Assembly: GCA_017456665.1 (NCBI GenBank)
Contig: JAFTIY010000018.1
Location: forward strand, 8,887 to 72,886
DNA from: Clostridia bacterium
GTDB lineage: Bacteria > Bacillota > Clostridia > Christensenellales > Borkfalkiaceae
DNA: 64,000 nucleotides
Reading direction: 5' to 3'
Shown: positions 1,324-63,934 of the stretch, piece by piece
Layout: the number at the start of each line of letters is the position of its first letter
Numbering within the stretch: position 1 is the first letter of the stretch
Program-made: the position numbers and the translations under genes
Notes under the pieces: generated by a model
The model's input: only the letters and a program-made list of their open reading frames with translations
Database searches by the model: none
Told to the model about the DNA's origin: nothing

Positions 1324-1359
1324 GAAAGTGCCGTTAATCCACTTATAACCCCACTTTTT
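1324..1359 (+). repeat. REP-like hairpin element, variant core
   Basis: gaaagtgccGTTAATCCACTTATAACCccacttttt; arms AAGTG/CACTT. Confidence 0.7.
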
Positions 1360-1387
1360 ATTAAATGGGTTAACTTGATATAAAGCG

Positions 1388-1416
1388 TTGACAAACGTTT
1401 ATGCGTATGATATAAT
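1388..1416 (+). promoter_or_regulatory. sigma-70-type promoter TTGACA-17-TATAAT
   Basis: TTGACA 1388-1393, TATAAT 1411-1416. Confidence 0.7.
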
Positions 1417-1437
1417 TAAATGCGGAGGGAATGGGAT

Positions 1438-2442: not shown

Positions 2443-2449
2443 TTATAGC

Positions 2450-2487
2450 CTCTATAGCGCGTTAACTGTGCTATAGAGGTTTTTTTA
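2450..2487 (+). terminator. intrinsic terminator
   Basis: CCTCTATAGC-gcgttaactgt-GCTATAGAGG followed by TTTTTTT. The stem/loop contains CTATAGCGCGTTAAC, which resembles the reverse of the REP-like core. Confidence 0.8.
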
Positions 2488-2498
2488 TTTAATAATGA

Positions 2499-4100: not shown

Positions 4101-4139
4101 AAAAATAATCGAGTGTAAATTAAAAACAAAAAACAAATC

Positions 4140-4170
4140 AAAAGTGGTTTAATCGCGTTATAGGCCCACT
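4140..4170 (+). repeat. REP-like hairpin element
   Basis: aaaagtggTTTAATCGCGTTATAGGCccact. Confidence 0.85.
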
Positions 4171-4188
4171 AATTAAAGGAAAAATATT

Positions 4189-5773: not shown

Positions 5774-5841
5774 GGCTAAAAACTGTTTTAAAGATTAATA
5801 AATAAACTAACAGAAAGTAAGTGGCTTTTTATGTGTAAATT

Positions 5842-5870
5842 GTGCTTTAATCGCGCTATACGCCGGTTTT
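5842..5870 (+). repeat. REP-like hairpin element
   Basis: gtgcTTTAATCGCGCTATACGCcggtttt. Confidence 0.75.
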
Positions 5871-5873
5871 TAA

Positions 5874-5908
5874 TAAAAAAAGTGTTGATTTTTATCAACA
5901 CTTTTTTG
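5874..5908. terminator. bidirectional intrinsic terminator between convergent genes
   Basis: AAAAAAA-AGTGTTGAT-tttt-ATCAACACT-TTTTT. Confidence 0.85.
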
Positions 5909-5936: not shown

Positions 5937-6551
5937 TTATTTTAAAAACACGCCGTTTTCTAAACAGGGCATTACCGAGTGCTCAATCATATCTTCTATT
6001 TGATCGTCGCTCATGTTTTCAAACATGGCTTTGAGCCCCAAAAAGTTAGAAATACCCATCAACATATACGCAACGGTAGAATAGTCGCTTGCGCGTACCT
6101 CTTCACCCTCGCCCGTTAGTGCGCGAATATAGCTTTTTGCGAACGATTCGTAATAGTCTGAAAACATTTTGTGGTCGATTGAAAGACTTCCCCAAATAAT
6201 ATTATATACGTTAGGGGTTTTTACAACGTAGCGAATAAAGCTTTTAATTCCTTCTTTTTCTTTTTCACGGCGGGTAGTGCAGCCCGCTATACTTGATGCA
6301 AGGTTTTGTTTGATTTCGCTTTTATATTTTGCCATTAAATACTTGTATATATCGGCCTTGCTATCGAAGTAAATATAAAAAGTACCAACTGCCGTTTTTG
6401 CCTTTTTGCAGATATCTGAAATAGACGTTTGATAAAATCCTTCTTTAACGAACAGCTCCACCGCCGCCTCTACGATGGTATTCATTTTCATCATTCCGTG
6501 GCTAGTTTTTGGATTGTTAACACCCTCAACCTTAAGCTGTTTACCAGACAT
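5937..6551 (-). CDS. TetR/AcrR-family transcriptional regulator (FadR/YsiA-like by context)
   Basis: N-terminal HTH FYQTSISDICKKAKTAVGTFYIYF; divergent from the acyl-CoA operon. Confidence 0.8.
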   Translation of the reverse strand: MSGKQLKVEGVNNPKTSHGMMKMNTIVEAAVELFVKEGFYQTSISDICKKAKTAVGTFYIYFDSKADIYKYLMAKYKSEIKQNLASSIAGCTTRREKEKEGIKSFIRYVVKTPNVYNIIWGSLSIDHKMFSDYYESFAKSYIRALTGEGEEVRASDYSTVAYMLMGISNFLGLKAMFENMSDDQIEDMIEHSVMPCLENGVFLK

Positions 6552-6738: not shown

Positions 6739-6750
6739 GATTTTGTAATA

Positions 6751-6771
6751 AATATGAACATTATTCATATT
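6751..6771. promoter_or_regulatory. palindromic operator AATATGAA-CATTA-TTCATATT (candidate TetR/FadR-like box)
   Basis: Perfect 8-bp inverted arms starting 12 nt after the -10 element. An identical 21-mer occurs in inverted orientation at 31609-31629. Confidence 0.7.
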
Positions 6772-6962: not shown

Positions 6963-7370
6963 ATGACGTTTAACGAGTTAAAAATCGGTCAAAAGGCCAG
7001 CGTTCAAAAAACCTTTACCGCTGCAGACGTAACTGCGTTTGCCGGCATAAGCACAGACGTAAATCCCATTCATATGAGTGACGGATACGCTAAAAATACT
7101 GTGTTTGGCAAAAGAATAGTACACGGCATATTGACTTCGGGCTTAATTTCTGCCGTACTTGCAAATAAGTTACCGGGCCCCGGAACAATTTATTTGGGGC
7201 AAGAGTTGCGTTTTACCGCTCCCGTATATTTGGGTGACGATATAACTGCTGAGGTAGAGGTTGCAGAATTGAGAGAGGATAAAAAGATCGTTAAATTGAA
7301 CACTACTTGTTACAATCAGGACGGAAAAACGGTTATTACCGGAATGGCAACCGTTAAGTTCGACTGTTAA
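6963..7370 (+). CDS. MaoC-like (R)-specific enoyl-CoA hydratase/dehydratase
   Basis: Hot-dog fold motif DVNPIHMSDGYAKNTVFGKRIVHG. Confidence 0.8.
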   Translation: MTFNELKIGQKASVQKTFTAADVTAFAGISTDVNPIHMSDGYAKNTVFGKRIVHGILTSGLISAVLANKLPGPGTIYLGQELRFTAPVYLGDDITAEVEVAELREDKKIVKLNTTCYNQDGKTVITGMATVKFDC

Positions 7371-7381
7371 TCGGAGGATAT

Positions 7382-8518
7382 ATGGCTAACTTTAAGCACA
7401 CTTTATTCGAACAAATGATTAAAGACTTTGCCGAAACCGAGGTTAAACCGTTGGCTCAAGAGGTTGACGAGCAAGAGGTTTTTCCCGCTGAAACGGTTGA
7501 AAAAATGGCAAAGAGCGGAATTATGGGAATTATCGTTCCCAAACAGTACGGCGGGGCAGGCGGAGATTACAATATGTATATTTACGCCGTTGAAGAGCTT
7601 TCAAAGCATTGCGCAACCACAGGCGTTATTTTATCTGCGCACACTTCCCTTTGCCAAGCTCCCATTTTAGAGTACGGCACAGAGGAGCAAAAGCAAAAAT
7701 ATTTACCCGATTTAGCATCCGGCAAAAAAATTGGTGCATTCGGCCTTACAGAACCCAATGCGGGAACTGATGCAAGCAATCAGCAAACCGTTGCAGTTGA
7801 AAAAGAGGATCACTACCTTTTAAACGGCAGCAAGATTTTTATAACCAACGCGGGCTATGCCTCAACGTATATAATAATCGCCGTAACCGGCAAAGGACCT
7901 AAAGGGCCCGAAATGTCGGCGTTTATAGTTGAAAGCGCTTTTGAAGGGTTTACCATCGGTAAAAAAGAGAAAAAGATGGGTATTCGCGGTTCTTCTACCT
8001 GCGAGCTTATATTTGAAAACGTAAAAGTTCCTAAAGAAAATTTACTTGGCAAGCGTGGCGATGGCTTTAAAATTGCAATGAAAACGTTAGACGGCGGTCG
8101 TATCGGTATTGCAGCGCAAGCACTTGGAATTGCGGAGGGTGCGTTAGACACTACGGTAGCCTACGTTAAGAGCAGAAAACAGTTCGGTAAGCCCATTTCG
8201 GCATTCCAAAACACACAATTCGTTCTTGCAGATCTTTCTACCAAGATTGCTGCGGCAAGACTTTTGGTTTATGCGGCGGTAGCTGCAAAGCAAAATAAAG
8301 AGCCCACGCTTTCTGTTAAAGCGGCGCAAGCAAAGCTGTTTGCTGCAGAAACGGCAATGGAGGTTACCACTAAGGCGGTTCAGCTTCACGGCGGATACGG
8401 ATACACGCGTGAGTACCCCGTAGAAAGAATGATGCGCGACGCTAAGATAACCGAAATTTACGAAGGCACGAGCGAAGTTCAAAGAATGGTAATTTCGGCC
8501 GCTCTTTTGAAGAAGTAA
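7382..8518 (+). CDS. bcd: butyryl-CoA (short-chain acyl-CoA) dehydrogenase
   Basis: 378 aa, recalled as close to clostridial Bcd along its length (GLTEPNAGTD, YEGTSE motifs); followed by etfBA. Confidence 0.9.
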   Translation: MANFKHTLFEQMIKDFAETEVKPLAQEVDEQEVFPAETVEKMAKSGIMGIIVPKQYGGAGGDYNMYIYAVEELSKHCATTGVILSAHTSLCQAPILEYGTEEQKQKYLPDLASGKKIGAFGLTEPNAGTDASNQQTVAVEKEDHYLLNGSKIFITNAGYASTYIIIAVTGKGPKGPEMSAFIVESAFEGFTIGKKEKKMGIRGSSTCELIFENVKVPKENLLGKRGDGFKIAMKTLDGGRIGIAAQALGIAEGALDTTVAYVKSRKQFGKPISAFQNTQFVLADLSTKIAAARLLVYAAVAAKQNKEPTLSVKAAQAKLFAAETAMEVTTKAVQLHGGYGYTREYPVERMMRDAKITEIYEGTSEVQRMVISAALLKK

Positions 8519-8530
8519 AGAGGTGCAAAT

Positions 8531-9316
8531 ATGAAAATTATCGTATGTATTAAACAAGTTCCGAACACTACTGAAATAAAAATAGATCCCGTAACTAACA
8601 CTTTAAAGCGTGACGGCGTACCCAGCATTATCAATCCAGATGATAAATCTGCAATAGAGGCCGCTCTTTCGCTTAAAGAAAAATGCGGTGCAACCGTAAC
8701 GGTATTAACAATGGGGCCCATGCAGGCAGAAAAGGCTCTTCGCGAGGCTCTTGCGATGGGAGCAGACGAAGCCTTCTTGCTTACCGACAGGGCTTTTGCT
8801 GGAAGCGACACCTTGGCTACCTCAACCATTATCGCTGCGGCTATTAAAAAATTGGGTGCAGACCTCGTATTTTGCGGCAGACAAGCTATCGACGGCGATA
8901 CCGCGCAGGTTGGCCCGCAAATTGCAGAGCATTTAGATATTCCGCAAATAACCTATGCTGCCGCAATCGATTACGACTGCGAGCGCGACGTATTAAGGGT
9001 TAAACGCCAATTTGAAGACAGATATCAGGTTTTAGAGGTAAAAGGTAAGTGCCTCGTAACTGTTCTTTCTTCTATGACCAAGCCCAGATATATGAACGTT
9101 TGGGATATAGTTGAGCAAGACGAAAAGGAAATTTCGTTTATTACCTTTGCAGATCTTGAGTTAAATCGCGAAGATATAGGTCTTAACGGTTCTCCCACTA
9201 AGGTTAAATCTACTGCAACCAAGCAGTTTGATAAAACTATTGAAACTGTTGAGCTCGATCCCGAAAGCGCGGCTCAAACTATAGTAGACGCATTAAAAGC
9301 GCGTCATCTGATTTAA
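8531..9316 (+). CDS. etfB: electron transfer flavoprotein subunit beta
   Basis: MKIIVCIKQVPNT start typical of EtfB; position between bcd and etfA. Confidence 0.9.
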   Translation: MKIIVCIKQVPNTTEIKIDPVTNTLKRDGVPSIINPDDKSAIEAALSLKEKCGATVTVLTMGPMQAEKALREALAMGADEAFLLTDRAFAGSDTLATSTIIAAAIKKLGADLVFCGRQAIDGDTAQVGPQIAEHLDIPQITYAAAIDYDCERDVLRVKRQFEDRYQVLEVKGKCLVTVLSSMTKPRYMNVWDIVEQDEKEISFITFADLELNREDIGLNGSPTKVKSTATKQFDKTIETVELDPESAAQTIVDALKARHLI

Positions 9317-9328
9317 GGAGGCCTTACT

Positions 9329-10312
9329 ATGAACAATAAAAATATATGGGTATTCTGCGAACAGCGTGACGGCGTTATTCAAGACGTAGCGTTAGAGCTT
9401 TTAGGAGTTGCAAGCGAGCTAGCAAAAACCACTAATGAAAAGGTTTGTGCTTTATTGCTCGGAAGCAAGATTAAAAAGCAGGCTAAGGAGCTTATAGCTT
9501 ACGGGGCCGATCAGGTTTTAGTGGTAGATCATAAAAATCTTGAAACCTTCGTTACAGAGCCTTACGCACAGGCTGTAACACAGCTTGCAAAACAGTACGA
9601 ACCCTCTATAATATTATTTGGGGCAACGAGTATCGGCAGAGATTTAGCTCCAAGACTTTCGGCAAGATTAAAAACAGGCTTAACGGCAGACTGCACCAAG
9701 CTTGAGGCTGATGAAAATGGCAATCTTTTTATGACCCGTCCTGCGTTTGGCGGCAATCTTTTTGCAACGATTATTTGCCCCGATCACCGTCCTCAAATGT
9801 CAACGGTGCGCCCCGGCGTTATGAAGAAAATGGAACGCGACGGTAAGCGCAAGGGAGAGATTATCGAGTGCGAAATAAATTTTGACCAGTCAAAATTTGC
9901 AGTAAGCGTAATTGAAGAGGTTAAGGCGTGTAGTAACGTTGCAAAAATAGAAGATGCTAAAATATTGGTATCTTGCGGTAGGGGAATAAAAGACATAACT
10001 CCCGCGTTTGAGGTAGCAGGCAAGTTAAAGGGTACTGTTTCTGCCTCTCGCGCGCTGGTTGATGCAGGCGTTACAGCGCACGATCGCCAGGTAGGGCAAA
10101 CGGGTAAAACGGTACGCCCCGATGCATATCTTGCATTCGGCATAAGCGGAGCTATTCAGCACCTTGCCGGTATGGAAGAATCTGAATTTATCGTTGCTGT
10201 AAACACCGATAAAAACGCACCTATTTTCAAGATTGCAAATCTCGGAATAGTTTCCGACGCTGCTGCCGTATTAAAGCAGCTTAACAAAATAATCGAAAAC
10301 AAACCATGTTAA
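9329..10312 (+). CDS. etfA: electron transfer flavoprotein subunit alpha
   Basis: C-terminal FAD-binding region SGAIQHLAGM typical of EtfA. Confidence 0.9.
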   Translation: MNNKNIWVFCEQRDGVIQDVALELLGVASELAKTTNEKVCALLLGSKIKKQAKELIAYGADQVLVVDHKNLETFVTEPYAQAVTQLAKQYEPSIILFGATSIGRDLAPRLSARLKTGLTADCTKLEADENGNLFMTRPAFGGNLFATIICPDHRPQMSTVRPGVMKKMERDGKRKGEIIECEINFDQSKFAVSVIEEVKACSNVAKIEDAKILVSCGRGIKDITPAFEVAGKLKGTVSASRALVDAGVTAHDRQVGQTGKTVRPDAYLAFGISGAIQHLAGMEESEFIVAVNTDKNAPIFKIANLGIVSDAAAVLKQLNKIIENKPC

Positions 10313-10373
10313 AACAGACCGCGTAAACGGCTAAGCATATAATATTATATTTTTAAGGAAAAGGAGAAAACTC

Positions 10374-11579
10374 GTGAAAAAGGTATATTTAGTAAGCGCA
10401 AAGCGTAGTGCAATCGGATCTATGCTCGGTACTTTAAAGGATGTAGCTCCCACCTATCTCGGAGCGCAAGTTTTAAAAGCAGCTTTAGAGGATGCAAAGG
10501 TTAAGCCCGAATGGCTTGACGAAGTAGTAGTGGGTAACGTTTTACCTGCAGGCATTAAGCAAGGTCCGGCAAGACAGGTTGCAATCGGAGCAGGCGTTCC
10601 CGTAGAAGTTCCCGCATATTCAATCAATATGGTTTGCGGCAGCGGTATGAAGGCAGTTATGAACGCAGTAATTTCTATTCAGGCAGGCATGAACGATTTA
10701 GTTGCTGCAGGCGGCACGGAGGTTATGAGCGGCGCTCCCTATTTGGTAAGCGGAAAGGTTCGTTCGGGTAATAAAATGGGCGAAATGAAGATGGCTGACC
10801 ATATGCTGTTAGATTCGCTTACCGATGCTTTTAGCAACGTTCATATGGGTATTACCGCAGAAAACGTAGCAGAGCAGTACGGAATTACCCGTCAAGCTCA
10901 AGACGAGTTTGCTATTAAATCTCAACAAAAGGCTATTGCAGCACAAGATGCAGGCAAGTTTAAAGACGAAATAGTTCCTTTAACGGTTAAAATGGGTAAA
11001 AAAGAAGTAGTGTTTGATCAAGACGAATATATCAACCGCACCACTACTTTAGAAAAACTTTCAACCTTAAGAACTGCGTTTAAACCTGACGGAACGGTTA
11101 CTGCAGGTAACGCTTCAGGTATTAACGACGGCGCAAGCTTCGTTATAGTAGCAAGCGAAGAAGCAGTTGCAAAATATAACCTCACTCCCATGGCTGAAAT
11201 CGTTGGAATAGGCCAAGGCGGCGTTGATCCTTCAGTTATGGGGCTTGGTCCTGTTCCCGCAGTAGGCAACGCACTCGAAAACGCAGGTATGAAGCTTGAA
11301 CAGATGGAAGTTTTAGAGCTTAACGAAGCGTTTGCGGCTCAATCTCTCGGCGTTGTTAAGCTATTAAGCGAAAACCACGGCGTATCACAAGAATGGATTA
11401 TGGAAAGATGTAACGTAAACGGCGGCGCTATAGCTCTCGGTCACCCCGTAGGCGCAAGCGGTAACAGAATTATCGTTACGTTAGCACACGAGCTTAAGCA
11501 CAGCGGAAAAACTTACGGCGTAGCATCTCTCTGCATCGGTGGCGGTATGGGAACTGCAGTCGTACTCAAAAACTTATAA
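10374..11579 (+). CDS. thl: acetyl-CoA acetyltransferase (thiolase)
   Basis: GTG start with an AAGGAG RBS. Thiolase motifs: NMVCGSGMKAV (active-site Cys), NVNGGAIALGHP, CIGGGMG. Confidence 0.9.
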   Translation: MKKVYLVSAKRSAIGSMLGTLKDVAPTYLGAQVLKAALEDAKVKPEWLDEVVVGNVLPAGIKQGPARQVAIGAGVPVEVPAYSINMVCGSGMKAVMNAVISIQAGMNDLVAAGGTEVMSGAPYLVSGKVRSGNKMGEMKMADHMLLDSLTDAFSNVHMGITAENVAEQYGITRQAQDEFAIKSQQKAIAAQDAGKFKDEIVPLTVKMGKKEVVFDQDEYINRTTTLEKLSTLRTAFKPDGTVTAGNASGINDGASFVIVASEEAVAKYNLTPMAEIVGIGQGGVDPSVMGLGPVPAVGNALENAGMKLEQMEVLELNEAFAAQSLGVVKLLSENHGVSQEWIMERCNVNGGAIALGHPVGASGNRIIVTLAHELKHSGKTYGVASLCIGGGMGTAVVLKNL

Positions 11580-11619
11580 AAAATAAAAAAAATATATAAA
11601 TTTAAGGAGAAAAAACATT

Positions 11620-12339
11620 ATGAGATTACAAGGAAAAGTAGCAATAGTAACAGGTGGCGCAAAAGGTCTTGGCGGCGAAATGGCTCAAACTTTCTCTAAC
11701 GAAGGTGCAAAGGTTATAGCCGTAGATATGGCTCCCTTAACCTATGAAAACGCAAACGTTGAATACTATCAGTTAAACGTTACCGACGGCGAGGCTTGCA
11801 AGGCTTTATTCGAATACGCTAAAGAAAAATATGGCAGAATCGATATTTTAGTTAACAATGCAGGTATTACCCGTGACGCTATGACCAGAAAGATGACCGA
11901 TGAACAATGGGATCTCGTTATCGATATCAACCTCAAAGGCGTATTTAACCTTACCCGTTTCGTAGGTCCTCATATGGAAGAAATGGGTGGCGGCTCAATC
12001 ATTAACATCGCATCGGTAGTTGGCGAATACGGCAACATCGGTCAAGCAAACTACGCTGCATCTAAAGCGGGCGTTATCGGCCTTAGCAAAACTTGGGCAA
12101 AGGAATTTGCAAGAAAGGGCGTTCCCGTAAGAGTAAACGCAATCGCTCCCGGATATATCATGACCGATATGATGAAAACCGTTCCCGAAGAACTTCTTAA
12201 AAAATTCGCAGGACTTACCATGCTTGGCAGATTAGGTCAACCCGAAGAAATCGCTAAAGCTGCATTATTCTTAGCAAGCGACGATGCTTCTTACGTAACC
12301 GGTCACGTTCTTTCTGTAAACGGCGGTATGAGATTATAA
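11620..12339 (+). CDS. short-chain dehydrogenase/reductase, FabG/PhaB-like 3-oxoacyl (acetoacetyl-CoA) reductase
   Basis: TGGAKGLG, NNAG and YAASKAG motifs. Confidence 0.85.
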   Translation: MRLQGKVAIVTGGAKGLGGEMAQTFSNEGAKVIAVDMAPLTYENANVEYYQLNVTDGEACKALFEYAKEKYGRIDILVNNAGITRDAMTRKMTDEQWDLVIDINLKGVFNLTRFVGPHMEEMGGGSIINIASVVGEYGNIGQANYAASKAGVIGLSKTWAKEFARKGVPVRVNAIAPGYIMTDMMKTVPEELLKKFAGLTMLGRLGQPEEIAKAALFLASDDASYVTGHVLSVNGGMRL

Positions 12340-12364
12340 TAATCGCTTTACGAGGAGAAAAAAT

Positions 12365-13381
12365 ATGGTAAACGTTGGAATAGTTGGGATTGGCACTTAC
12401 CTTCCCGAAAAAATTATGACCGCTAAAGAAATTTCAGATGCTACTAACGGCGTTTGGAGTGAAGATGCGGTAAGAGCAAAACTTGGTATTAACCAAAAAT
12501 ATATTCCTTCTGAAAACGCTTGCGACGGCACTCAAGAAATGGGTGCTTTAGCAGCTCTTAAATGCCTCGAAAATACCGGTGTTGATCCTCTCGAAATCGA
12601 TGCTATTATTTGTATTACCGAGGAATGGAAGGAATATCCGTTAACCACCTCTGCTTGCTACGTTCAAGATAGAATTGGGGCTAAAAACGCTTGGGGTATC
12701 GACGTTCAAAACAGATGCTGCACATGCGTTTCAGCTATGAAAATGGCAAAAGATATGCTTATTGCCGATGAAGAAATGAACACCGTTTTAATTTGTGGCG
12801 GTTACCGTAACTGCGATATGATAGATTATACCGATAGCGGCGTATCGTTTATGTTTAACCTCGGTGCAGGTGGCGGTGCAATTCTTCTTAAAAAGAATTA
12901 CGGCAAAAACCTCCTTTTAGGCACTCACCTTATGAGCGACGGTTCTGTAGTTCATACCTGCGGTGTAAAGGTAGGCGGTATTAACGAACCCTTAACCTGT
13001 GAAAATATTGGCGAAATGAACAAGCTTCGCCTTATGGATTCACCCAAAATGAAGGGCCTTTTAAACACCGTTTCTATGCCTAACTGGTATCACTGTATCG
13101 ACGAAGCTCTTCGCAAGTCAGGCAAAACCCGCGCTGATATCGATTATTTAGATATTTTACACATTAAGCGTTCAGGGCACAAGGCTATGCTTGCAGACCT
13201 CGGCCTTACCGAAGAACAGTCTATTTATCTCGAAAACTACGGCCATATCGGTCAGATAGACCAAATTCTTTCACTCGAGCTCGCTCTTAAAGAGGGCAAG
13301 GTTAAAGATGGAAGCGTTGTTTGTATGATAGCTGCGGGCATCGGTTACACTTGGGCTGCTAATATCATTCAGTGGGGATAA
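12365..13381 (+). CDS. 3-oxoacyl-ACP synthase III (FabH)-like family protein
   Basis: 338 aa with thiolase-fold KAS-III-like N- and C-terminal regions. Substrate unknown. Confidence 0.65.
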   Translation: MVNVGIVGIGTYLPEKIMTAKEISDATNGVWSEDAVRAKLGINQKYIPSENACDGTQEMGALAALKCLENTGVDPLEIDAIICITEEWKEYPLTTSACYVQDRIGAKNAWGIDVQNRCCTCVSAMKMAKDMLIADEEMNTVLICGGYRNCDMIDYTDSGVSFMFNLGAGGGAILLKKNYGKNLLLGTHLMSDGSVVHTCGVKVGGINEPLTCENIGEMNKLRLMDSPKMKGLLNTVSMPNWYHCIDEALRKSGKTRADIDYLDILHIKRSGHKAMLADLGLTEEQSIYLENYGHIGQIDQILSLELALKEGKVKDGSVVCMIAAGIGYTWAANIIQWG

Positions 13382-13384
13382 TAT

Positions 13385-14317
13385 ATGGGGTATTTCCTTG
13401 ATACGGTGTTAGATTCTACCACCGCGATGTGTGTTACTGCATTGGTAACAATGGCTATAACACTGATATTTAAAACGTCGTTTACAACCAACTTCGCACA
13501 AGGTGTAATTTCTGCATTCGGTGCGTTTGTTGCTTCAACGTTTTTTAATAAAATGGGTTGGCCGATTTGGTGTGCAGTACCGATTAGTATAATAGTATCT
13601 GCAGCGATAGCAGTTCTTGTTGACGTAGGAATTTTCCGAAGGGGAAGATACGTTAATGCTGTAGGCAAACAAATAATAACGATGGGTTTAATTTCGGTAA
13701 TAGTAAGTATAACCCCACTTATTTTTCCCGACCTTAAATACTTTGCAACTAATTTTCTTTCAGGTAATATTTCCTTCGTAATAGATGGATACAACGTAAC
13801 TTTAGCAAAAAACGCACTCGTTAGCGTTATTATTACAACAATTGTCCTTGCCACTATATTTATAACTCTTCGATATAGTAAATGGGGGCTTTCTGTTCGC
13901 GCTACTGCATCAAACGAATACGTAGCGGGTATGATGGGTATTAATACACACATCGTAACGGCTATTTCTTGGGGTATTGCGGGCGGACTTGGAGCATTAG
14001 CTGCATCAATAAACGCTACAAGTGCTGAAATCGGGGTATATTTTATGACCGAATATCAGGTAACGGCTTTCCTTGCCGGTATCGTTGGCGGTTTTGCAAC
14101 CTTCCACGGGCCGGTTATAGTTGCTATGTTGATACCGTTTTGTACGAACATGATAATTTGGTTTGGAAACGGTGTAATTTCGAAGCTCACTGGAGATGCA
14201 ACGCTCGGCGCGTCAATAGGTAACTGGGCAACGACCATAATTTATATCATAGCACTTATTATTATTTTCTTCAAGCCCAACGGAATATTTGGTAAGAAGA
14301 TAGAAAAGAAGGTGTAG
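13385..14317 (+). CDS. branched-chain-type ABC transporter permease (LivH-like)
   Basis: 310-aa polytopic membrane protein, first of a LivHMGF-order set. Confidence 0.8.
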   Translation: MGYFLDTVLDSTTAMCVTALVTMAITLIFKTSFTTNFAQGVISAFGAFVASTFFNKMGWPIWCAVPISIIVSAAIAVLVDVGIFRRGRYVNAVGKQIITMGLISVIVSITPLIFPDLKYFATNFLSGNISFVIDGYNVTLAKNALVSVIITTIVLATIFITLRYSKWGLSVRATASNEYVAGMMGINTHIVTAISWGIAGGLGALAASINATSAEIGVYFMTEYQVTAFLAGIVGGFATFHGPVIVAMLIPFCTNMIIWFGNGVISKLTGDATLGASIGNWATTIIYIIALIIIFFKPNGIFGKKIEKKV

Positions 14318-14320
14318 AGT

Positions 14321-15418
14321 ATGGACAAAAGGTTAAAACAACAATATTCTTTTGATAGTTTAAACGTTCAGTCAAAAACCTCTAAACCTATTGCTAAAAA
14401 CGTAAGAGGGATTTTTAAGAATTCCACTTTTCAATATTTGCTTTTTGGCGCAATATTAATCGTGTTACTTCTAGTAAGTGTAAAAACTCCTTATCTTCCT
14501 TATAGCTGGTATGGTGGCTTGATTTCTACAGCTTGTTTCAGTATTGCATCAATCGGTTTTTGTTTGCTGATGGGCTATTCGGGAATGGCTTCGCTCGGTA
14601 CAGGTGGGTTTATCGGTATAGGATGTTATTCCGTTTATTACGTTATGACGCTTTCGGGCTTATCCTTTTTCCTAGCTATTTTAGTAGCAATACTTATAGC
14701 CATAATTATAGGCGTAATAGTTGGATTTATTTCATTAAGGATAGAAAGCATTTATCTTGTAATTTTAACGTTAGGTTTATCTGAAATTTTACGTAACGTT
14801 TATCGCGTTTTAAGCGATAGCATCAATATTGGCAGGGTTGAAATTTTCGGAATGAAAATACTTACTGCCGATACGATGTATATTATAGTTCCTATTTTGG
14901 TAATTATAATGATCGTAACAAAAAATCTTATTTCCAGCCCAACGGGTAGGGCAATGCTCGCGATGAAAAATTCTACAGCGGCAGCTCAAGCAATGGGTAT
15001 AAGCGTATTAAAATATAGATTAATGGCTTTTATCATTTGTACTGTTTACGCTTCAATTAGCGGAACTATGTTAATCTTAAGAAACGGTTCTGCAACAGCT
15101 TCATCTGGAACGAGCTTTTATGCGTTAATAACCTCACTTAATATTCTTGCCGCTGTAATTATAGGCGGATACAAGTCTATTTGGGGTGCAATATTCGGTA
15201 CTTTCGTTATGTACGGTATGAATACTACTATATTGCAAAATATATCCTTTTTATCCGAACACCCCGAACTTGTTACCATAATTAGCGGTGTATTGGTTAT
15301 CGTGGTTGTTATGTTCTATCCCGGTGGTCTTGCACAACTATTGCAAGGATTTAAGGGTAAAATAAGCAAGCTTTTATTAAAGATAAGGGAGGCGAAATAT
15401 GGCAAAGACCTCGGTTAA
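14321..15418 (+). CDS. branched-chain-type ABC transporter permease (LivM-like)
   Basis: 365-aa polytopic membrane protein; AAGGTG RBS. Confidence 0.8.
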   Translation: MDKRLKQQYSFDSLNVQSKTSKPIAKNVRGIFKNSTFQYLLFGAILIVLLLVSVKTPYLPYSWYGGLISTACFSIASIGFCLLMGYSGMASLGTGGFIGIGCYSVYYVMTLSGLSFFLAILVAILIAIIIGVIVGFISLRIESIYLVILTLGLSEILRNVYRVLSDSINIGRVEIFGMKILTADTMYIIVPILVIIMIVTKNLISSPTGRAMLAMKNSTAAAQAMGISVLKYRLMAFIICTVYASISGTMLILRNGSATASSGTSFYALITSLNILAAVIIGGYKSIWGAIFGTFVMYGMNTTILQNISFLSEHPELVTIISGVLVIVVVMFYPGGLAQLLQGFKGKISKLLLKIREAKYGKDLG

Positions 15419-16835: not shown

Positions 16836-16837
16836 AA

Positions 16838-17551: not shown

Positions 17552-17672
17552 AAAGCTGGCAAACAAGAAGTTTGCCGCCAGGCGTTTAAAAACGCCGTAC
17601 TAAACTGAAACATTTGCATCATTTTGTGAGAATGGCAAAAGTTAATTTATATTATTTTAAAGGAGAAAATTA

Positions 17673-19145: not shown

Positions 19146-19262
19146 TTTTTAACTAGCAATATTTGGAATTTAGGTAAAACAATTAAATGCGCGCCGTAAT
19201 TTTAATTACGGCGCAAAATTCTCACATTAAATGTATGCTTTGTTTAAGCGCTTAAACAAGGG

Positions 19263-19290
19263 CCGCCCCTTTTTAAGGGGCGGTGCAAGT
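19263..19290 (+). terminator. GC-rich hairpin, probable terminator of the transporter operon
   Basis: CCGCCCCT-tttta-AGGGGCGG. The downstream T-tract is weak. Confidence 0.5.
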
Positions 19291-48104: not shown

Positions 48105-48121
48105 TTTTTAGCAAATTATAA

Positions 48122-48156
48122 AGCCGATTGCGGCGTGTTGTTGCAATCGGCTTTTT
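48122..48156 (+). terminator. intrinsic terminator
   Basis: GCCGATTGC-ggcgtgttgt-GCAATCGGC followed by TTTTTT. Confidence 0.85.
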
Positions 48157-48175
48157 TGTATAATTTTATTTAAAC

Positions 48176-48205
48176 TACGGTTAATCGCGCTATAGGCTTA
48201 TTTAT
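48176..48205 (+). repeat. REP-like hairpin element (core intact, arms degenerate)
   Basis: tacgGTTAATCGCGCTATAGGCttatttat. Confidence 0.75.
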
Positions 48206-48257
48206 TTAGTTAATACTTATTTAAAATCAATAAATTTTTACTGCACGGGTGATCATT

Positions 48258-48869: not shown

Positions 48870-48887
48870 TAAAGTATTATAAAAACT

Positions 48888-48925
48888 AAAAAGTGCCGCT
48901 ATATATTGATTAGCGGCACTTTTTT
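48888..48925 (-). repeat. REP-like hairpin element doubling as a bidirectional terminator
   Basis: AAAAAGTGCCGCtatatattgattaGCGGCACTTTTT; 12-bp perfect arms. Confidence 0.85.
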
Positions 48926-49055
48926 GATATAATAAATTCATAACGTTATACGTTGTTTAGCTTTTTTAACTGTTTAAAAAACTATGCGTTGTTCTTAGAA
49001 GTCAAAGGGTTAAGGGCTATGCGTAAATAAAGCAGCCAAATTTATATAAAGCCTT

Positions 49056-49631: not shown

Positions 49632-49658
49632 TTGTGCTTCTCCAAAAATATACTAATA

Positions 49659-49688
49659 GTGAGTTAATCGCGCTATATACCGATATTT
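49659..49688 (+). repeat. REP-like hairpin element, opposite to local transcription
   Basis: gtgaGTTAATCGCGCTATATACcgatattt, lying between the MATE stop and the mntP start. Confidence 0.75.
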
Positions 49689-49706
49689 ATATTTTTTTAC
49701 TTTAGT

Positions 49707-52374: not shown

Positions 52375-53401
52375 TAACAGTAAGCATAGGTTTGCTTGGC
52401 AAATTACCTCTATTATATTTTTGTGCTTAATGTCGTCTAGCGCACTCACTATTACCATAACTTTAATAATGGTAAGAATGGGTTTTGAGGTTCATCCTTA
52501 TACCTTTAGAACGTACGTCATTATCGCCTTTTTGGCTTCAAGCTTTTTAGGAACGGTTATTGCGGCATTTGCTACTAGAAAGTTAAGCGAGGAGTACGCT
52601 ACCTTTAAAGATACTATAAATCAGGTTGCCAACGGAAATTTCGACGTAGCCTTCCCGGAGGACAACGGAATGATAGATCAAATAGGGAGCGATCTCAATA
52701 TGATGGTAAAAGAGCTTAAAGGAGTGCAAATTTTGCGCCAAGAGTTCGTTGCCAACTTTTCACACGAGCTAAAAACTCCTATGATATCTATTAACGGTTT
52801 TTCGGAACTATTGCTTGCCGATGAAATTTCGGATGAAGAGCGCAAAGAATATGCAAAAATAATTTACGATGAAAGCTCTCGCCTTTTAACTCTTGCTCAA
52901 AATACTTTGCTTTTAAGCAAGCTCGAAGGGCAGGCCTTAGTTACCGAGCGCACCTCATTTTATATAGACGAGCTTATTGATAACAGCTTGTTGCTTATGG
53001 CAAAGCAAATAGAAGGTAAAAATCTTACTGTAAACAGCGAAATAGCAAAAATTAACTATTATTGGGATTCTAATCTTTTATCGCAAGTTTTTATAAACTT
53101 AATAAATAACGCTATTAAATACAGCAACGAAGGGGGCGAAATTACCCTTAAATTGTATTCTACAGAAGAACACGTTGTTTTCGTAATTTCCGATAACGGC
53201 GTTGGGATGAACGAGCAAACAATTGAAAGAATTTTTGATCGCTACTATCAAGCCGATAGCTCGCATAAAACGGAGGGCAACGGATTGGGGCTTGCTATAG
53301 TAGAAAAAATAATAAAGCTTGCAGGCGGAAAAATTACGGTTAAAAGTAAAATCGGCGAGGGTTCTACCTTTACCGTATACTTACCCGAGTTAAGTAACTA
53401 A
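52367..53401 (+). CDS. sensor histidine kinase
   Basis: Two N-terminal TM helices; H-box FSHELKTP, N-box NLINNAIKYS, G-boxes DNGVGM and GNGLGLAIV. Confidence 0.9.
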   Translation: MFNNSKHRFAWQITSIIFLCLMSSSALTITITLIMVRMGFEVHPYTFRTYVIIAFLASSFLGTVIAAFATRKLSEEYATFKDTINQVANGNFDVAFPEDNGMIDQIGSDLNMMVKELKGVQILRQEFVANFSHELKTPMISINGFSELLLADEISDEERKEYAKIIYDESSRLLTLAQNTLLLSKLEGQALVTERTSFYIDELIDNSLLLMAKQIEGKNLTVNSEIAKINYYWDSNLLSQVFINLINNAIKYSNEGGEITLKLYSTEEHVVFVISDNGVGMNEQTIERIFDRYYQADSSHKTEGNGLGLAIVEKIIKLAGGKITVKSKIGEGSTFTVYLPELSN

Positions 53402-53406
53402 ATAAC

Positions 53407-53442
53407 AAAAAGTGGGGCTATAAGTTGATTAGCTCCACTTTT
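53407..53442 (-). repeat. REP-like hairpin element, CAACTTATA core variant
   Basis: AAAAAGTGGggctataagttgattagctCCACTTTT. Confidence 0.85.
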
Positions 53443-53465
53443 CGTTTAATAAGGTAAACACAAAG

Positions 53466-55305: not shown

Positions 55306-55324
55306 TTAAAAAAGCTCCAATTTA

Positions 55325-55370
55325 AAAAGTACAAAAACCGCGCTATAAGTCGATTAACTGCATAAAAGGC
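55325..55370 (-). repeat. REP-like hairpin element, GTCGATTAA variant, intercistronic
   Basis: Plus strand: aaaagtacaaaaaccgcGCTATAAGTCGATTAACtgcataaaaggc. Confidence 0.7.
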
Positions 55371-55398
55371 TTATTTCGCGGCTTTATATTGAGTTGTT

Positions 55399-59803: not shown

Positions 59804-62800
59804 TATGGCGCTTACGGTAGAGCAAAAAAGAGCAATACAATTAAACGAAGGCAACATACTCGTTTCGGCTTCGGCTGGGAGCGGAAAAACCTTCGTTATG
59901 ATAGAGAGAGTTGCAAGGCTTTTGCTCGAGGGCAAAGCCAACGTAGACGAGCTTTTGTGCGTTACCTTTACCGTTTTAGCGGCTAAAGAAATGAAGCAAA
60001 AGCTTGCTAAAAAACTTACCGATGAGTTAAAAAACGGCGGTGATAAACAGCTTATAGAAAGGCAGTTAGATCTTTTGCCTATAAGTAATATTTCTACTAT
60101 TCACTCGTTTTGCAATAGACTGTTAACCGAATATTTTTACGAGGTAGGTCTTGACCCCGCTTTTAAAATTTTAGATGATAAAGAGAGTGAAATATTAGCT
60201 AATCGCGCTATAGACCGACTTTTTGAAGATTTATACGAAAAGAACGATAGCAATTTAAACACATTGTTGCCATACTTTTTTAAATATAGAAGTGATAAAT
60301 ATTTAAAAAGTACTATAATGGATCTTTACTTTTCGTTTATATCTGAGGCTAGTCCGTTTGATATTTTAAAAAATAACGAGTTTTACTACTCCAAAGAGGG
60401 AGTTGATAAAATTTACGCCTATTATTTAAGCTATTTTAAAAATCAGGCGCAGGGAATTTTAAACGAGATTGAAAAGATAGAAGAAAGGGTAAGCGATTAT
60501 CAAAAATTATATGAATATATATGCGTATTAAGAGGGCATTTAAACAAAATTATAAAATGCACCTCTGCCGATGAGCTTGCAGTTTTTACCAAAGCGGATT
60601 TGCCTCGTAAGCCGAATAAACCCAAAACAGACGACCCGTTTGCAATAGAGGTAGATAACGAGGTAAAGGCCGTTAAAGAGCTTATAGACGCACTTTATAA
60701 AGAAAAAGAGAGTAAGGTTTTTGTTAATTCATATCAAACCGAGGTTAAATGGGCTGAAGAAATGCTGCCCGTTTATAAGGCGCTTTGCGCTTTAATTGAA
60801 GAGTTTTCGTTGCGCTTTGAAAAGGAAAAGCGAGAGGAAAATGGGGTTGATTATTCAGACCTTGAGCATCTTACTCTAAAGCTTTTGCAAAACGAGCAAA
60901 TAAGAAGTGAAATTAAGGGTAGATTTAAATATATTTTTACCGATGAATATCAAGACACGAGCGGCGTTCAAGAGAGTATTTTAACCGCAATAGCTAGCGA
61001 TAACTTATTTATGGTTGGCGATCCCAAACAGAGTATATACGATTTTAGAGGGTGCAACCCGGGCATCTTCTCGAAAAAATTTGCCCTTTACGAAAAAGGC
61101 TTGGGTGGAACGGCAATTAGTCTTGACAAAAACTTTAGAAGCACTAAAACGGTTATTGCAAGCGTAAACAACCTATTTAAAGAGATAATGACTATTGATT
61201 GCGGAAAGGTTGATTATGCAAAATATCCTATGGTGGCGCAAGCTGAATACCCTGAAGACGAGGGTGAGTGCAAAATGCTTTTAACTTTAAAGAGCAAGGC
61301 CGAAAACGCTTTTCCGCAAGGGGTATATTCAGTCGTTAAACATTTAAAGCTTTTGGGCGAAAATAAATGTTTTGAAGAGGGCAGGCAAATTGCCGAGCTC
61401 ATTAGCAAAATTTACGGCACGAGTTATTATTGCATTAAGGAAAAAAGATGGAAGAGTGTTGATTACGGCGATATAGTAATTTTATTGCGCAGTGCAAACG
61501 CCGATTGCGATAAATACGCTCAAGAACTTATTAGGGCGGGTATTCCCGTTTCGGCAAACTCTAAAAGAAGTATAGCTGAATACGCAGAAATTGCGCTCGC
61601 CGTTAATATTTTACAGCTTATTGATTGTTACAACCAAGATATTGCTCTCGCAGCGGTGCTTAAAAGCCCGATAGGCAATTTAACCGATAGCGATTTTATG
61701 CAAATAAGAAGGGCTTATGCAAAGGGTACGTTTGTAGAAATTACCGAAAAATACGCACTCGAATACGATGATGAAATAAGTAAAAAACTGCATGCGTTTA
61801 AAAAATATTTCGACGATATACGGCTTATTGCGGAGTTTATTCCGTGCGATGAACTTCTTGCAAAAATCGTTCGCGATAAGGGCATAGATATAAGCTTGCT
61901 TTCGTCGCGTATGGGCAAGGTTAAGCTAGCAAGGCTAAATAGGTTTATTCAAGCAGCGGGCGCAAAAAAGCAAACCGCCAGCGAGTTTTTGCAGGGAATA
62001 GATAAAACCTTGCAGTCTATAACGGTTAGCTTTGCAGATCAAAACGCCGTTAAAATTATGAGCATTCACGCTTCAAAGGGGCTTGAATTTTCCATCGTAA
62101 TAATGGGTGGAATAAATAAAAAATTTATAAACGCCGATTATTCGGGAGAGATTATATCCGATCGCTCATTCGGCATAGCTTTAAGTCATAAGGATCTTGA
62201 AAGCAGAAGGGTAAATAAAAACATCTTTTTAAGATACGCCTCTCGCATTAACAAAAATAAAATGCTTGAGGGCGAAATGAACCTTTTATACGTGGCGATG
62301 ACTCGAGCTAAAAACAACTTGTATTTAATTGGCGAATTTGCAAGCGAAAAATCAATGCAATTAAAACCAAATCATTTGTTTAACGACGTTTATGGAGCTT
62401 CTGGCTTTTTTGCGATGTTCGCTCAAAGCGATATGCCTTGCGAAATTTGCAGTAGCGAGCAAAATAAAGGCTTTGTTGAACAAGAGGTAAGGCAGGTAAT
62501 AGTAAGCAAGCCAGATCCCGAACTCGTTTCGCTCATTAAAAACAATTTGCAGTTTGAATATGGGTATCAAAATCAAGTTAATCTTTCGGTAAAGCGTTCG
62601 GTTACCTCGGCTGCGCATTACGATGAGCAAGAGGGTATAACCTACGAAAAAAGCGCAATTTACGGCGAATCAGATAGCGATATAGGTAATGCTTATCACC
62701 GCTTTTTAGAGTTGTGCGATTTTTCGCGCGATGCCGAAAGTGAGTTTAATCGACTTATAGGCGGCCTTTTGCTTACTGAAGATGAGGTAAAATTAATAGA

Positions 62801-63167
62801 AAAACAAAAAATTGAGCGAATTTTTGCTTTGAGTATTTTTAAAGAGCTAAACGGGTTTACGCTGTACAAGGAGCAACCGTTTACCTGTTATATGCCCGCA
62901 CGCATAGTTGAGGGCGATAACAAAGAGGGCGAAATATTAGTTCAAGGAATTATCGACCTTTTGGCAATAAAGGGCAACGAAGCAATTATTATCGATTACA
63001 AGCACAGCAAAATTAAAGATGACCAAATGCTTATAAAAAGGTATCAAAAACAGCTTGAGCTTTATGCTTATGCTGTGCAAAAAGTGCTTGATAAACGTGT
63101 TATAGGCGCATATCTTGTTAATTTATATAGTGCAAAGGTTATAAAAACACAGCTTAACAACGTTTAA
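59796..63167 (+). CDS. addA: ATP-dependent helicase/nuclease subunit A
   Basis: UvrD-type motifs ASAGSGKT, TDEYQDT and VMTRAK-like YVAMTRAK; C-terminal nuclease IIDYKHS. Confidence 0.9.
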   Translation: MSSMALTVEQKRAIQLNEGNILVSASAGSGKTFVMIERVARLLLEGKANVDELLCVTFTVLAAKEMKQKLAKKLTDELKNGGDKQLIERQLDLLPISNISTIHSFCNRLLTEYFYEVGLDPAFKILDDKESEILANRAIDRLFEDLYEKNDSNLNTLLPYFFKYRSDKYLKSTIMDLYFSFISEASPFDILKNNEFYYSKEGVDKIYAYYLSYFKNQAQGILNEIEKIEERVSDYQKLYEYICVLRGHLNKIIKCTSADELAVFTKADLPRKPNKPKTDDPFAIEVDNEVKAVKELIDALYKEKESKVFVNSYQTEVKWAEEMLPVYKALCALIEEFSLRFEKEKREENGVDYSDLEHLTLKLLQNEQIRSEIKGRFKYIFTDEYQDTSGVQESILTAIASDNLFMVGDPKQSIYDFRGCNPGIFSKKFALYEKGLGGTAISLDKNFRSTKTVIASVNNLFKEIMTIDCGKVDYAKYPMVAQAEYPEDEGECKMLLTLKSKAENAFPQGVYSVVKHLKLLGENKCFEEGRQIAELISKIYGTSYYCIKEKRWKSVDYGDIVILLRSANADCDKYAQELIRAGIPVSANSKRSIAEYAEIALAVNILQLIDCYNQDIALAAVLKSPIGNLTDSDFMQIRRAYAKGTFVEITEKYALEYDDEISKKLHAFKKYFDDIRLIAEFIPCDELLAKIVRDKGIDISLLSSRMGKVKLARLNRFIQAAGAKKQTASEFLQGIDKTLQSITVSFADQNAVKIMSIHASKGLEFSIVIMGGINKKFINADYSGEIISDRSFGIALSHKDLESRRVNKNIFLRYASRINKNKMLEGEMNLLYVAMTRAKNNLYLIGEFASEKSMQLKPNHLFNDVYGASGFFAMFAQSDMPCEICSSEQNKGFVEQEVRQVIVSKPDPELVSLIKNNLQFEYGYQNQVNLSVKRSVTSAAHYDEQEGITYEKSAIYGESDSDIGNAYHRFLELCDFSRDAESEFNRLIGGLLLTEDEVKLIEKQKIERIFALSIFKELNGFTLYKEQPFTCYMPARIVEGDNKEGEILVQGIIDLLAIKGNEAIIIDYKHSKIKDDQMLIKRYQKQLELYAYAVQKVLDKRVIGAYLVNLYSAKVIKTQLNNV

Positions 63168-63208
63168 AAAATAAAAATAGCGGGCATAATTACCACGAGG
63201 TGTTTTTT

Positions 63209-63934
63209 ATGTCTGCTTTTTATTTTGCTGTTTATAATATTTTAATAAAAATTGCTGCAAGCGGATTACTTAGTAAGCTTTCGCTTATAAATTTTACTAT
63301 TGCATTAACAATAGGTACGGTTTATCTATTTATATGCGTGCTGGTAAAAAAAGTAAGAGAGAAAAATTGCGTTTGGTGTTTTTATTGCTTTGCAAGCGTA
63401 TATATTAGTGACCTTACCTTATGTTATTTACAGTATAAGTTTTTTGGTGGTATTTATCAAAGCATAACCAAAGTTTTGCTGTTATGCACGACGCGTTATA
63501 TGCTGTTAATCGCGTTATACGCGGCCATTTTGCTTGTTTGCAAGCTTTTTGATTTTAAAATTCAGTTGCAAAACAAAGGCATTTGCAGCAGTTTTTCTGC
63601 CGACAAAACCGAAGAAAAAAAGCAGGTCATACGCCTTAAAGAAAGCGTTTGCTCTAAAAACGGAGTAGAGTGCCCGCTATCCATTGATTTAATAGGTAAG
63701 GTTATGGAGCAAAAGCGCACCGTTCACCCGTGCGACGTAAATCTTTCTTACGTTAAAGGTGTGTTAAATGCTCTTAACCAAAAGAATTTAACGCAAGAAG
63801 AGCGTGAATTTACCTCTGACTTAAATTTTATTCTTTCATCTAGTATTCCGGCAGGTGGAGAAGAGCAAAGGGATTTGAATAAAAAGCTTTGTGTTTTAAT
63901 AAAAAAAATAACTGAATACCAAGTTGATATATAG
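63209..63934 (+). CDS. hypothetical membrane protein (hydrophobic N-terminal half, soluble C-terminal half)
   Basis: 241-aa ORF from ATG 63209. It carries an in-frame REP-like core at 63505-63522. Confidence 0.45.
   Translation: MSAFYFAVYNILIKIAASGLLSKLSLINFTIALTIGTVYLFICVLVKKVREKNCVWCFYCFASVYISDLTLCYLQYKFFGGIYQSITKVLLLCTTRYMLLIALYAAILLVCKLFDFKIQLQNKGICSSFSADKTEEKKQVIRLKESVCSKNGVECPLSIDLIGKVMEQKRTVHPCDVNLSYVKGVLNALNQKNLTQEEREFTSDLNFILSSSIPAGGEEQRDLNKKLCVLIKKITEYQVDI
63500..63531 (+). repeat. REP-like core inside a predicted coding region
   Basis: atgctGTTAATCGCGTTATACGCggccatttt, encoding ..MLLIALYAAIL.. Confidence 0.7.

Follow-up and report, generated by a model that had tools for sequence, protein, structure and literature searches.

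In a 64,000-nucleotide stretch of a Clostridia bacterium of the family Borkfalkiaceae (contig JAFTIY010000018.1; hereafter, the window), we analyzed a short, densely repeated element that a preliminary description had presented as an intergenic hairpin-repeat family. Our analyses showed that the conserved entity is a sequence word and not primarily a hairpin. The word is sequence-constrained, occurs in either orientation in most genomes, occupies tolerated sites, lies within genes without insertions or deletions (indels), and is divided into dialects among related genomes. We consider the chances about even that the word acts at the level of DNA as a signal that a protein recognizes. Its likeliest function would then be that of a self-DNA tag for the uptake and recombination machinery, an assignment that we offer tentatively. 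More doubtfully still, the word may represent the first uptake-signal-type self-DNA tag outside Proteobacteria, found in a Gram-positive gut family, spread by molecular drive, and diversified into genus-level dialects.

The existence of the repeat family was borne out by two counts. With the core GTTAATCGCGTTATAGSC searched at ≤3 mismatches, the window contained 22 matches, compared with 0.17 expected from dinucleotide shuffles. A profile hidden Markov model (HMM; nhmmer) made from 18 copies returned 25 matches at E <1e-3 and three to five weaker ones spanning 1322–63536, for a total of about 28–30 copies in 64 kb. The same sites were grouped by an independent repeat finder, and the homology between copies extended over only about 29–35 nt. 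The conserved unit of approximately 27 bp reads TAATCG-N3-YTATAG-SC-N3-CTTTT, and the fuller consensus reads aaaa-N5-GTTAATCGCGTTATAGSC-NNN-CTTTT. The near-invariant blocks TAATCG, TATAG, and TTTT are spaced by roughly one helical turn. Across 79 copies, core positions T3, A5, T12, A13, and T14 were invariant, and A4, T6, C7, G8, and A15 as well as the TTTT at +5 to +8 were conserved in ≥90%. All statistics reported here derive from this one window and approximately 0.5 Mb of loci from relatives, part of which were picked by exact core matches. The copies in the window are the following.

1322–1365, plus strand: intergenic copy with the variant core GTTAATCCACTTATAAC; nhmmer E = 1.5e-4; a consensus promoter follows at 1388
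2445–2494, plus strand: degenerate copy, a terminator-shaped hairpin AGCCTCTATAG...CTATAGAGGTT with T-run, 3 nt past a stop codon
2774–2825, plus strand: intergenic, perfect core (2792), 13 nt past the stop of the small open reading frame (ORF) 2556–2779
4138–4175, plus strand: intergenic, one mismatch, lacking the T-run, between two co-directional genes
5831–5881, plus strand: intergenic (core 5846), in a convergent gap and followed by a canonical terminator at 5876–5907
14798–14815, plus strand: coding, three mismatches, sense frame, in a branched-chain amino-acid permease gene
23436–23485, plus strand: intergenic, perfect core; an 11/12 consensus promoter (23530–23558) follows
24643–24696, plus strand: intergenic, 12 nt past a stop codon
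25907–25958, plus strand: intergenic, perfect core; lies past the Gut-1 RNA region and is followed by a promoter (26058–26087)
28162–28213, plus strand: intergenic, perfect core, in a gap of 621 nt and 13 nt past a stop codon; followed by a promoter (28629–28657)
29850–29897, minus strand: coding (core 29861), antisense, in an AAA-type ATPase-like gene, peptide GYNCVN
30232–30276, plus strand: intergenic, perfect core (30243), in a convergent gap directly after a hairpin at 30192–30227
32293–32340, plus strand: intergenic, perfect core
33374–33423, minus strand: long form with a GCTATAAC...GTTATAGC stem, 4 nt past the 3' end of a minus-strand gene
35021–35053, plus strand: weak copy TAATCAACTTATAGGC in a gap within a minus-strand operon
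36850–36898, plus strand: intergenic, with an internal GCGCG-TTAAT-CGCGC hairpin, abutting a stop codon
38119–38157, minus strand: intergenic, opposed to the flanking genes, overlapping the nifS stop codon
39487–39538, plus strand: intergenic, two mismatches, abutting a stop codon
40284–40331, plus strand: variant GTTAATCAACTTATAT with a good outer stem
41500–41547, minus strand: intergenic, opposed to the flanking genes, overlapping the deoB stop codon
44940–44988, plus strand: long form GCCTATAAC...GTTATAGGC, 14 nt past the secA stop
48165–48214, plus strand: armless copy (48180) after a canonical terminator at 48120–48154; the core is kept in the orthologous gap of a relative, where the flanks have diverged
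48882–48926, minus strand: fully palindromic variant with a 13-bp stem and 9-nt loop, after udk
49649–49695, plus strand: intergenic, opposed to the flanking minus-strand genes
53401–53449, minus strand: variant GCTAATCAACTTATAGCC with a strong stem, directly past a stop codon in a convergent gap
55323–55375, minus strand: intergenic, co-oriented with minus-strand genes
60195–60232, plus strand: coding, in addA, peptide ANRAIDRLF, no indel relative to Bacillus subtilis AddA
62737–62773, plus strand: coding, in addA, peptide FNRLIGGLL, no indel; the orthologous site of the relative L042 carries a weaker copy
63081–63121, plus strand: weak coding copy near the addA C-terminus, peptide DKRVIGAYL
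63496–63536, plus strand: coding (core 63505), one mismatch, in ORF 63200–63934; a TAG-to-TAC change removes the in-frame stop

Several parts of the preliminary description agreed with this list. The three proposed sub-variants were recovered as TCAAC cores (40301 and, on the minus strand, 53416 and 48898), TCGAC cores on the minus strand (38131 and 55341), and long forms (44955 and 33390), and the intergenic copies were split into approximately 18 on the plus and six on the minus strand. The window also proved to be free of transposases. The genes of the window and those tabulated for the loci of eight relatives (L149–L156) included neither a transposase nor a cognate REP-associated tyrosine transposase (RAYT; Y1 HUH). 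Likewise, the Rfam covariance models gave no match overlapping a copy, whether the gathering threshold or an E value of up to 5 was applied; membership in a known RNA family was thereby rejected. The core was all but missing from collections of viral contigs, plasmids, and phages, and an origin from phage or plasmid was rejected for the lack of matches there. A literature search gave no match to the core string and no Borkfalkia paper with such a repeat in its title or abstract. The copy at 2792 only seemed remote from genes; it is preceded by the small ORF 2556–2779, an unannotated-looking frame of 74 residues with a ribosome-binding site and its own 12/12 consensus promoter (2499–2527). Upstream of the copy at 1322, the gap contains two tandem 109-nt units (1021–1257) that are 95% identical.

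The copies were described earlier as hairpins whose 18-nt core would form a large loop, and this picture held for a subset only. Where the hairpin is well formed, GUUA at one end of the core pairs with UAGC at the other (including one G·U pair), and this pairing extends the arms to a stem of 13 bp that closes a loop of 9 nt (−17 to −22 kcal/mol). The core is better conserved than the arms, as had been noted, but its two ends can pair. Other copies fold alternatively by pairing an upstream GSCTATAAC with GTTATAGSC, a third design consists of the small GCGCG-TTAAT-CGCGC hairpin, and many copies form nothing stable. We evaluated arm pairing in a fixed register with a 13-pair stem over 79 aligned intergenic copies. 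The proportion of paired cells was 62.6%, compared with 61.6% in shuffles, and 53 of 500 shuffles reached the observed value. The same alignment carried no covariation signal. Most folds were weak and similar on the reverse strand (mean −10.6 vs −9.7 kcal/mol). Compared with chimeric arm pairs, the real ones folded somewhat better (−8.1 vs −6.75 ± 0.29, mean minimum free energy), a gap that could stem from shared descent within sub-families. The form of an intrinsic terminator (GC-rich stem, short loop, and U-run) was seen in some copies (40301, 48898, 53416, and copies of the relative JAZOCA01); in most, the stem is weak or a separate terminator adjoins. Such ordinary terminators adjoin the copies at 48180 (48120–48154), 30243 (30192–30227), and 5846 (5876–5907) and copies in the relatives L151, L153, and L155, so that neither transcription nor folding of the copy itself is required.

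The position of the copies relative to genes was examined in a census of all window gaps ≥45 bp. Copies were found in 23 of the 30 co-directional or convergent gaps and in none of the five divergent gaps (Fisher p = 0.002), which narrows the earlier statement that almost every gap longer than 60 bp carries one. They usually begin 0–20 nt 3' of the upstream stop codon, and consensus sigma-70 promoters, where present, come after the copy (1388, 23530, 26058, and 28629). These downstream promoters, the empty divergent gaps, and a core without usable −35/−10 geometry led us to reject a promoter function. The relatives, whose gene calls are crude (longest ORFs), gave a similar picture of placement: in 24 of 26 long gaps, the copy was closer to the upstream stop than to the following start (p = 1e-5), and divergent gaps were again under-used (5/29 vs 58/144 for other gap types). 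Orientation relative to genes was random in these loci, with 22 copies co-oriented and 23 opposed. The copy in the udk gap lies on the minus strand in the window and on the plus strand in the relative L153, and position or orientation also differed between orthologous secA gaps and between L039 and L004. Within the window, a 16-kb block (6963–23351) with genes for a CoA transferase, an ABC transporter of branched-chain amino acids, and enzymes of the fatty-acid beta-oxidation type contained zero intergenic copies despite gaps of 61, 121, and 380 nt; its GC content is raised, reaching 0.44, and the block may be a later acquisition.

With replication direction in the relatives taken from a proxy of GC skew and gene strand, 26 intergenic copies were on the leading and 15 on the lagging strand, a difference that was not significant, and coding copies leaned the other way (3 leading vs 13 lagging). 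These opposite leanings rule out a uniform polar signal and give no support to the strand-polar architecture role suggested previously. Polar chromosome sequences of the Chi or KOPS/SRS type were rejected for the same opposing skews and because the word is far longer than their 5–8-mers.

The family had been called intergenic; however, at least six window copies lie within genes (14798, 29861 on the minus strand, 60198, 62745, 63090, and 63505). To obtain a null for such sites, each gene was rewritten in synonymous codons at the window's own usage in 300 simulations. Five coding sites at ≤3 mismatches were present, compared with 0.30 expected, and none of the 300 simulations reached five, which excludes chance or a codon artefact as their source. 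The addA gene holds three of the five, and a further two, weaker sites are in addAB. The coding copies showed biased codon choice and were restricted to stop-free frames, namely VNRVIG in sense and AYNAIN in antisense. The AddA copies corresponded to no insertion in the alignment to B. subtilis AddA. In relatives, exact 18-mers were found within the miaA and alanine racemase (Alr) genes, and alignments of their products to solved structures were ungapped or even shorter. The alignments to solved homologues, in which no residues are added, excluded in-frame insertion of the kind known from Rickettsia palindromic elements (RPEs). Moreover, 24 independent coding copies retained the core together with the downstream CTTTT, which makes the T-run part of the DNA word and not only the U-run of a terminator. 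Among the coding copies of relatives, antisense cases (16) outnumbered sense cases (5).

To place the word among related genomes, we used SecA identity as the gauge of relatedness, and the loci below were picked by SecA, not by motif. The window genes form a Firmicutes-type housekeeping set, and the closest SecA relatives with a named source were metagenome-assembled genomes (MAGs) labelled Clostridia, Clostridiales, or Candidatus Borkfalkiaceae.

Window: SecA reference; about 28 copies in 64 kb; core GTTAATCGCGTTATAGSC
JAZOCA01 (L153): SecA 87%; 14 copies in 18.5 kb; core G(T/A)TAATCGCGYTATAGSC
SIG378 (L150): SecA 86%; 6 copies in 22.7 kb; core similar to that of JAZOCA01
L154: SecA 84%; 8 copies in 22.7 kb; core GATAATCGACYTATAGSC
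L155: SecA 77%; 5 copies in 22.7 kb; core ATTWATCG...TATAGGS
L156: SecA 73%; about 0 copies
80 metagenome loci (1.08 Mb): SecA ≤62%; 0 copies

The dialects followed relatedness: the beginning GTTAATCGCG... is replaced by GATAATCGAC... where SecA identity is 84% and by ATTWATCG... where it is 77%. A scan for the exact core in one genome per species returned mainly gut and rumen MAGs labelled Christensenellaceae or Clostridia, besides approximately 15 scattered chance matches. Orthologous copies persisted between species that were 86–95% identical in DNA; in pairs that had not been selected by the core, the core differed at 1–3 of 18 positions, and the flanks were often unalignable. One contig of the same species (L152) was 99.99% identical to the window. 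Of genes for a possible DNA uptake machinery, the relatives' loci showed only a ComFC-like gene, which adjoins secA in L155 and L156. Type II-A CRISPR-Cas9 loci (cas9, cas1, cas2, and csn2) were also located near secA in L151 (3469–9374) and L155 (17659–22685); the window contains none.

Four roles had been proposed for the family: a selfish REP/MITE-like element (REP, repetitive extragenic palindromic; MITE, miniature inverted-repeat transposable element), an RNA 3'-end element, a protein-binding or DNA-uptake-type signal, and a strand-polar sequence. We favor the third, based on the sequence word, the indel-free genic copies, and the codon choice bent to the word. Under this reading, a sequence-specific protein would recognize the word as double-stranded DNA. 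The word would arise and be retained wherever it is tolerated, chiefly in the short stretch 3' of stop codons, where its own T-run and the upstream A-run could ease the building of a (bidirectional) terminator hairpin around or beside it. Tolerance would be lower within genes and limited to stop-free frames that leave protein length unchanged. Copies would then accumulate through biased uptake followed by homologous replacement; the known counterparts are the uptake signal sequences (USS) of Pasteurellaceae and the DNA uptake sequences (DUS) of Neisseriaceae.

A number of observations weigh against this reading. Coding sites at four to five mismatches showed no excess, so that gradual drive is not directly visible, and the coding share, at only ~20–25% of copies, is below that of USS. 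The stop-proximal placement, as seen in the 24 of 26 long gaps of relatives, is tighter than mere tolerance predicts. In the window, strong intergenic copies were co-oriented with the upstream gene in 15 cases and opposed in two (p = 0.002), a bias that hints at an added RNA or terminator role in this genome and suggests that many of its copies have been co-opted as terminators. JAZOCA01 carries, at unrelated loci, at least six near-identical units of ~45–50 nt that take in the arms and some of the flanking sequence; this copy-and-paste appearance is not predicted by uptake drive. The word has ~14 fixed positions, compared with 9–12 in USS and DUS, and we know of no Gram-positive bacterium in which uptake specificity has been described. 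In addition, the figures rest on 64 kb plus ~0.5 Mb of relatives' loci, some of them chosen for exact core matches.

The JAZOCA01 units, near-identical over ~50 nt at unrelated loci, speak for an interspersed repeat of the REP/SPRITE kind, which we regard as a possible but doubtful explanation. According to it, a small terminator-shaped element, possibly immobile now, was copied after genes, whether targeted to or surviving there, and was partly co-opted, the core being the recognition site of the mobilizing enzyme. High copy density, the better folding of real than of chimeric arm pairs (−8.1 vs −6.75 ± 0.29), and the variation of position and orientation between species in the same gap fit this explanation, as does the placement at 3' ends and in convergent gaps but not in the window's divergent gaps, as published for SPRITE (PMC3049150). 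However, the homology in the window spans only ~30 nt, and the copies share neither a consistent hairpin nor a GTAG-type REP signature. No transposase was encoded in any locus examined. The coding copies are not insertions and exceed the synonymous-recoding null, and orthologous copies are stable across species at 86–95% DNA identity. The selfish-element role of the preliminary description was therefore weakened, with the JAZOCA01 units remaining in its favor.

Two further explanations were considered. The word could be an architectural site akin to the one that IHF occupies between the inverted REPs of an Escherichia coli element (bacterial interspersed mosaic element 1, BIME-1, or RIP); a nucleoid or topology protein would bind and bend the DNA there, past the ends of transcription units, in regions that gather positive supercoils. 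The asymmetric core between inverted arms at 3' ends, the three blocks about one helical turn apart with A-tract and T-tract flanks over a ~35-bp span, and the indifference to orientation in relatives are consistent with this proposal. In our own comparison, the core also matches the IHF consensus, WATCAANNNNTTR, at seven of nine specified positions, and the TCAAC variants match at eight of nine, a loose match that we counted for the proposal. The two most critical A positions are nevertheless G and C, classical IHF is not expected in Firmicutes, no candidate protein was identified, and exact copies within enzyme genes (miaA and alr) are hard to reconcile with a site-specific need; we consider an architectural site unlikely. 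Alternatively, the word might act in RNA, as a transcribed hairpin with a U-run that stabilizes 3' ends or brings about intrinsic termination, possibly with the help of a factor, and whose conserved loop is read by an RNA-binding protein. The co-orientation of 15 of 17 strong intergenic window copies, the location of copies 0–20 nt past stops and ahead of consensus promoters, and the well-formed copies (−17 to −22 kcal/mol), in which a U-run adjoins a 13-bp stem with a 9-nt loop and a G·U pair possible on the forward strand only, all point in this direction. Against it stand the lack of covariation over the 79 aligned copies, folds that are weak and similar on the reverse strand (−10.6 vs −9.7), the excess of antisense over sense coding copies in relatives (16 vs 5), and the negative Rfam scan. 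Random orientation in relatives (22 vs 23) and the separate canonical terminators near or ahead of copies, moreover, weaken the 3'-end role that had been proposed as a primary function. As the main explanation of the word, an RNA-level element appears improbable.

Apart from the word, the window contains several other features. The only RNA families matched in it (Rfam) were a lysine riboswitch and a Gut-1 RNA, and it contains no tRNA. The riboswitch (36030–36207, minus strand, 100.5 bits) precedes an amino-acid ABC transporter operon (35990 to 33427). The Gut-1 RNA (RF01706, 25777–25847, minus strand, 57.6 bits) lies within a run of short GGATTTCA-type hairpin repeats (25700–25880), and a similar run of AACATCATTT hairpins follows secA in the relative L150 (12800–12890). 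The prfB gene, which the ORF list contained only as its downstream frame (45344–46159), appears to start at 45062 and, within 45062–45160, to contain the +1 frameshift site CTT TGA C that is classic for RF2, behind the Shine–Dalgarno (SD)-like stretch GGCAGGG. One of three single-nucleotide differences between L152 and the window (45126 G/T) lies in this SD-like stretch. A perfect 22-nt inverted match, AAATATGAACATTATTCATATT, occurs at 6750–6771 and 31609–31630, just downstream of two 12/12 consensus promoters, one before an acyl-CoA dehydrogenase/electron-transfer flavoprotein/thiolase operon and the other before a pyrophosphatase gene. The two sites probably serve as operators at which one repressor acts on both transcription units; divergent from the first of these promoters lies a gene of the TetR family (5937–6551, minus strand).

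The origin of uptake sequences is still debated, and sequence-specific DNA uptake is, to our knowledge, known only from two proteobacterial families. If the word is indeed such a tag, it would provide an independent Gram-positive case in which molecular drive can be tested against selection. A USS-like word would also point to a DNA-recognizing protein still to be found and would serve as a practical marker for binning, for the detection of recombination, and, in these uncultured genomes, for telling recent acquisitions from native DNA. Should it prove architectural or REP-like instead, the word would still be a previously undescribed element at most gene 3' ends of a common gut clade, for which genome annotation and terminator prediction would have to account.

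Comparison by eye with the consensus sequences of described elements showed that none of attC, dif/Xer, parS/Noc-type sites, the DnaA box, the Fur box, cre, or the sigma-28 −10 box fits the word. Integron attC sites, which are imperfect palindromes of 57–141 bp with RYYYAAC...GTTRRRY ends that follow promoterless cassettes, differ from the unit of ~30–45 nt described here, whose flanking genes are housekeeping genes with their own consensus promoters; no integrase was present. RPEs are likewise interspersed and also occur in frame within protein-coding genes, but they are insertions of ~100–150 bp that add residues, whereas the coding copies of the word add none. The REPs and BIMEs of enterobacteria and pseudomonads resemble the word in their hundreds of copies, in their location at extragenic 3' ends of transcription units and within operons, and, for BIME-1/RIP, in a protein-binding asymmetric segment between inverted arms. 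The word differs from them in the absence of a stable conserved palindrome, of a GTAG signature, and of a visible RAYT, in its genic copies, and in the phylum of its host. REPs and REPINs form a stable hairpin from an imperfect palindrome of 20–40 nt in every copy and are strictly extragenic, and the word shows neither property; it shares with them the placement in transcribed gaps at gene 3' ends.

The word shares with SPRITE, an interspersed repeat of Firmicutes, the AAAA/TTTT ends, a terminator-like form, location near the 3' ends of coding sequences, strong enrichment in convergent gaps, and no matching transposase (PMC3049150). SPRITE, however, is an 18-bp duplex with a long U-rich tract, is regarded as inserted DNA, and numbers ~30 copies in a genome, whereas the word has an inconsistent stem, an asymmetric conserved core, a far higher density, and indel-free coding copies. 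The inconsistent stem, the shared unit of ~30 nt, and the non-inserted coding copies speak against membership in SPRITE or in terminator-like MITEs.

Between 34.5% and 65% of USS and DUS lie within ORFs, with frame and codon preferences and a preference for poorly conserved residues (PMC2817400), and biases in orientation and toward gene termini have been described for uptake sequences (PMC2346458). The word departs from these systems in that ~75–80% of its copies are intergenic, in that it usually occurs as a single copy with arms and not as an inverted pair, and in its co-orientation bias in this genome; its host is an uncultured Gram-positive lineage. At 1325–1340, 40293–40308, and the 48898 region, the 5' arm and the start of the core form AAAGTGCCGT, which matches the Haemophilus USS core AAGTGCGGT at eight of nine positions; given the phylogenetic distance of the hosts, this likeness is probably a coincidence. 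The properties shared with USS and DUS are those of the word as a whole. Both are dense, short, lineage-specific words with dialects among related genera and an extended motif with phased A/T tracts (PMC2817400; PMC2346458). Both are enriched at gene ends and terminators, enter genes without indels in preferred frames with accommodation of codons and residues, and are not accompanied by a transposase, for the word in the loci examined. Among the known systems compared, only USS and DUS combine these traits, and it is on this basis that we propose, as a candidate function, a self-DNA tag for uptake and recombination.

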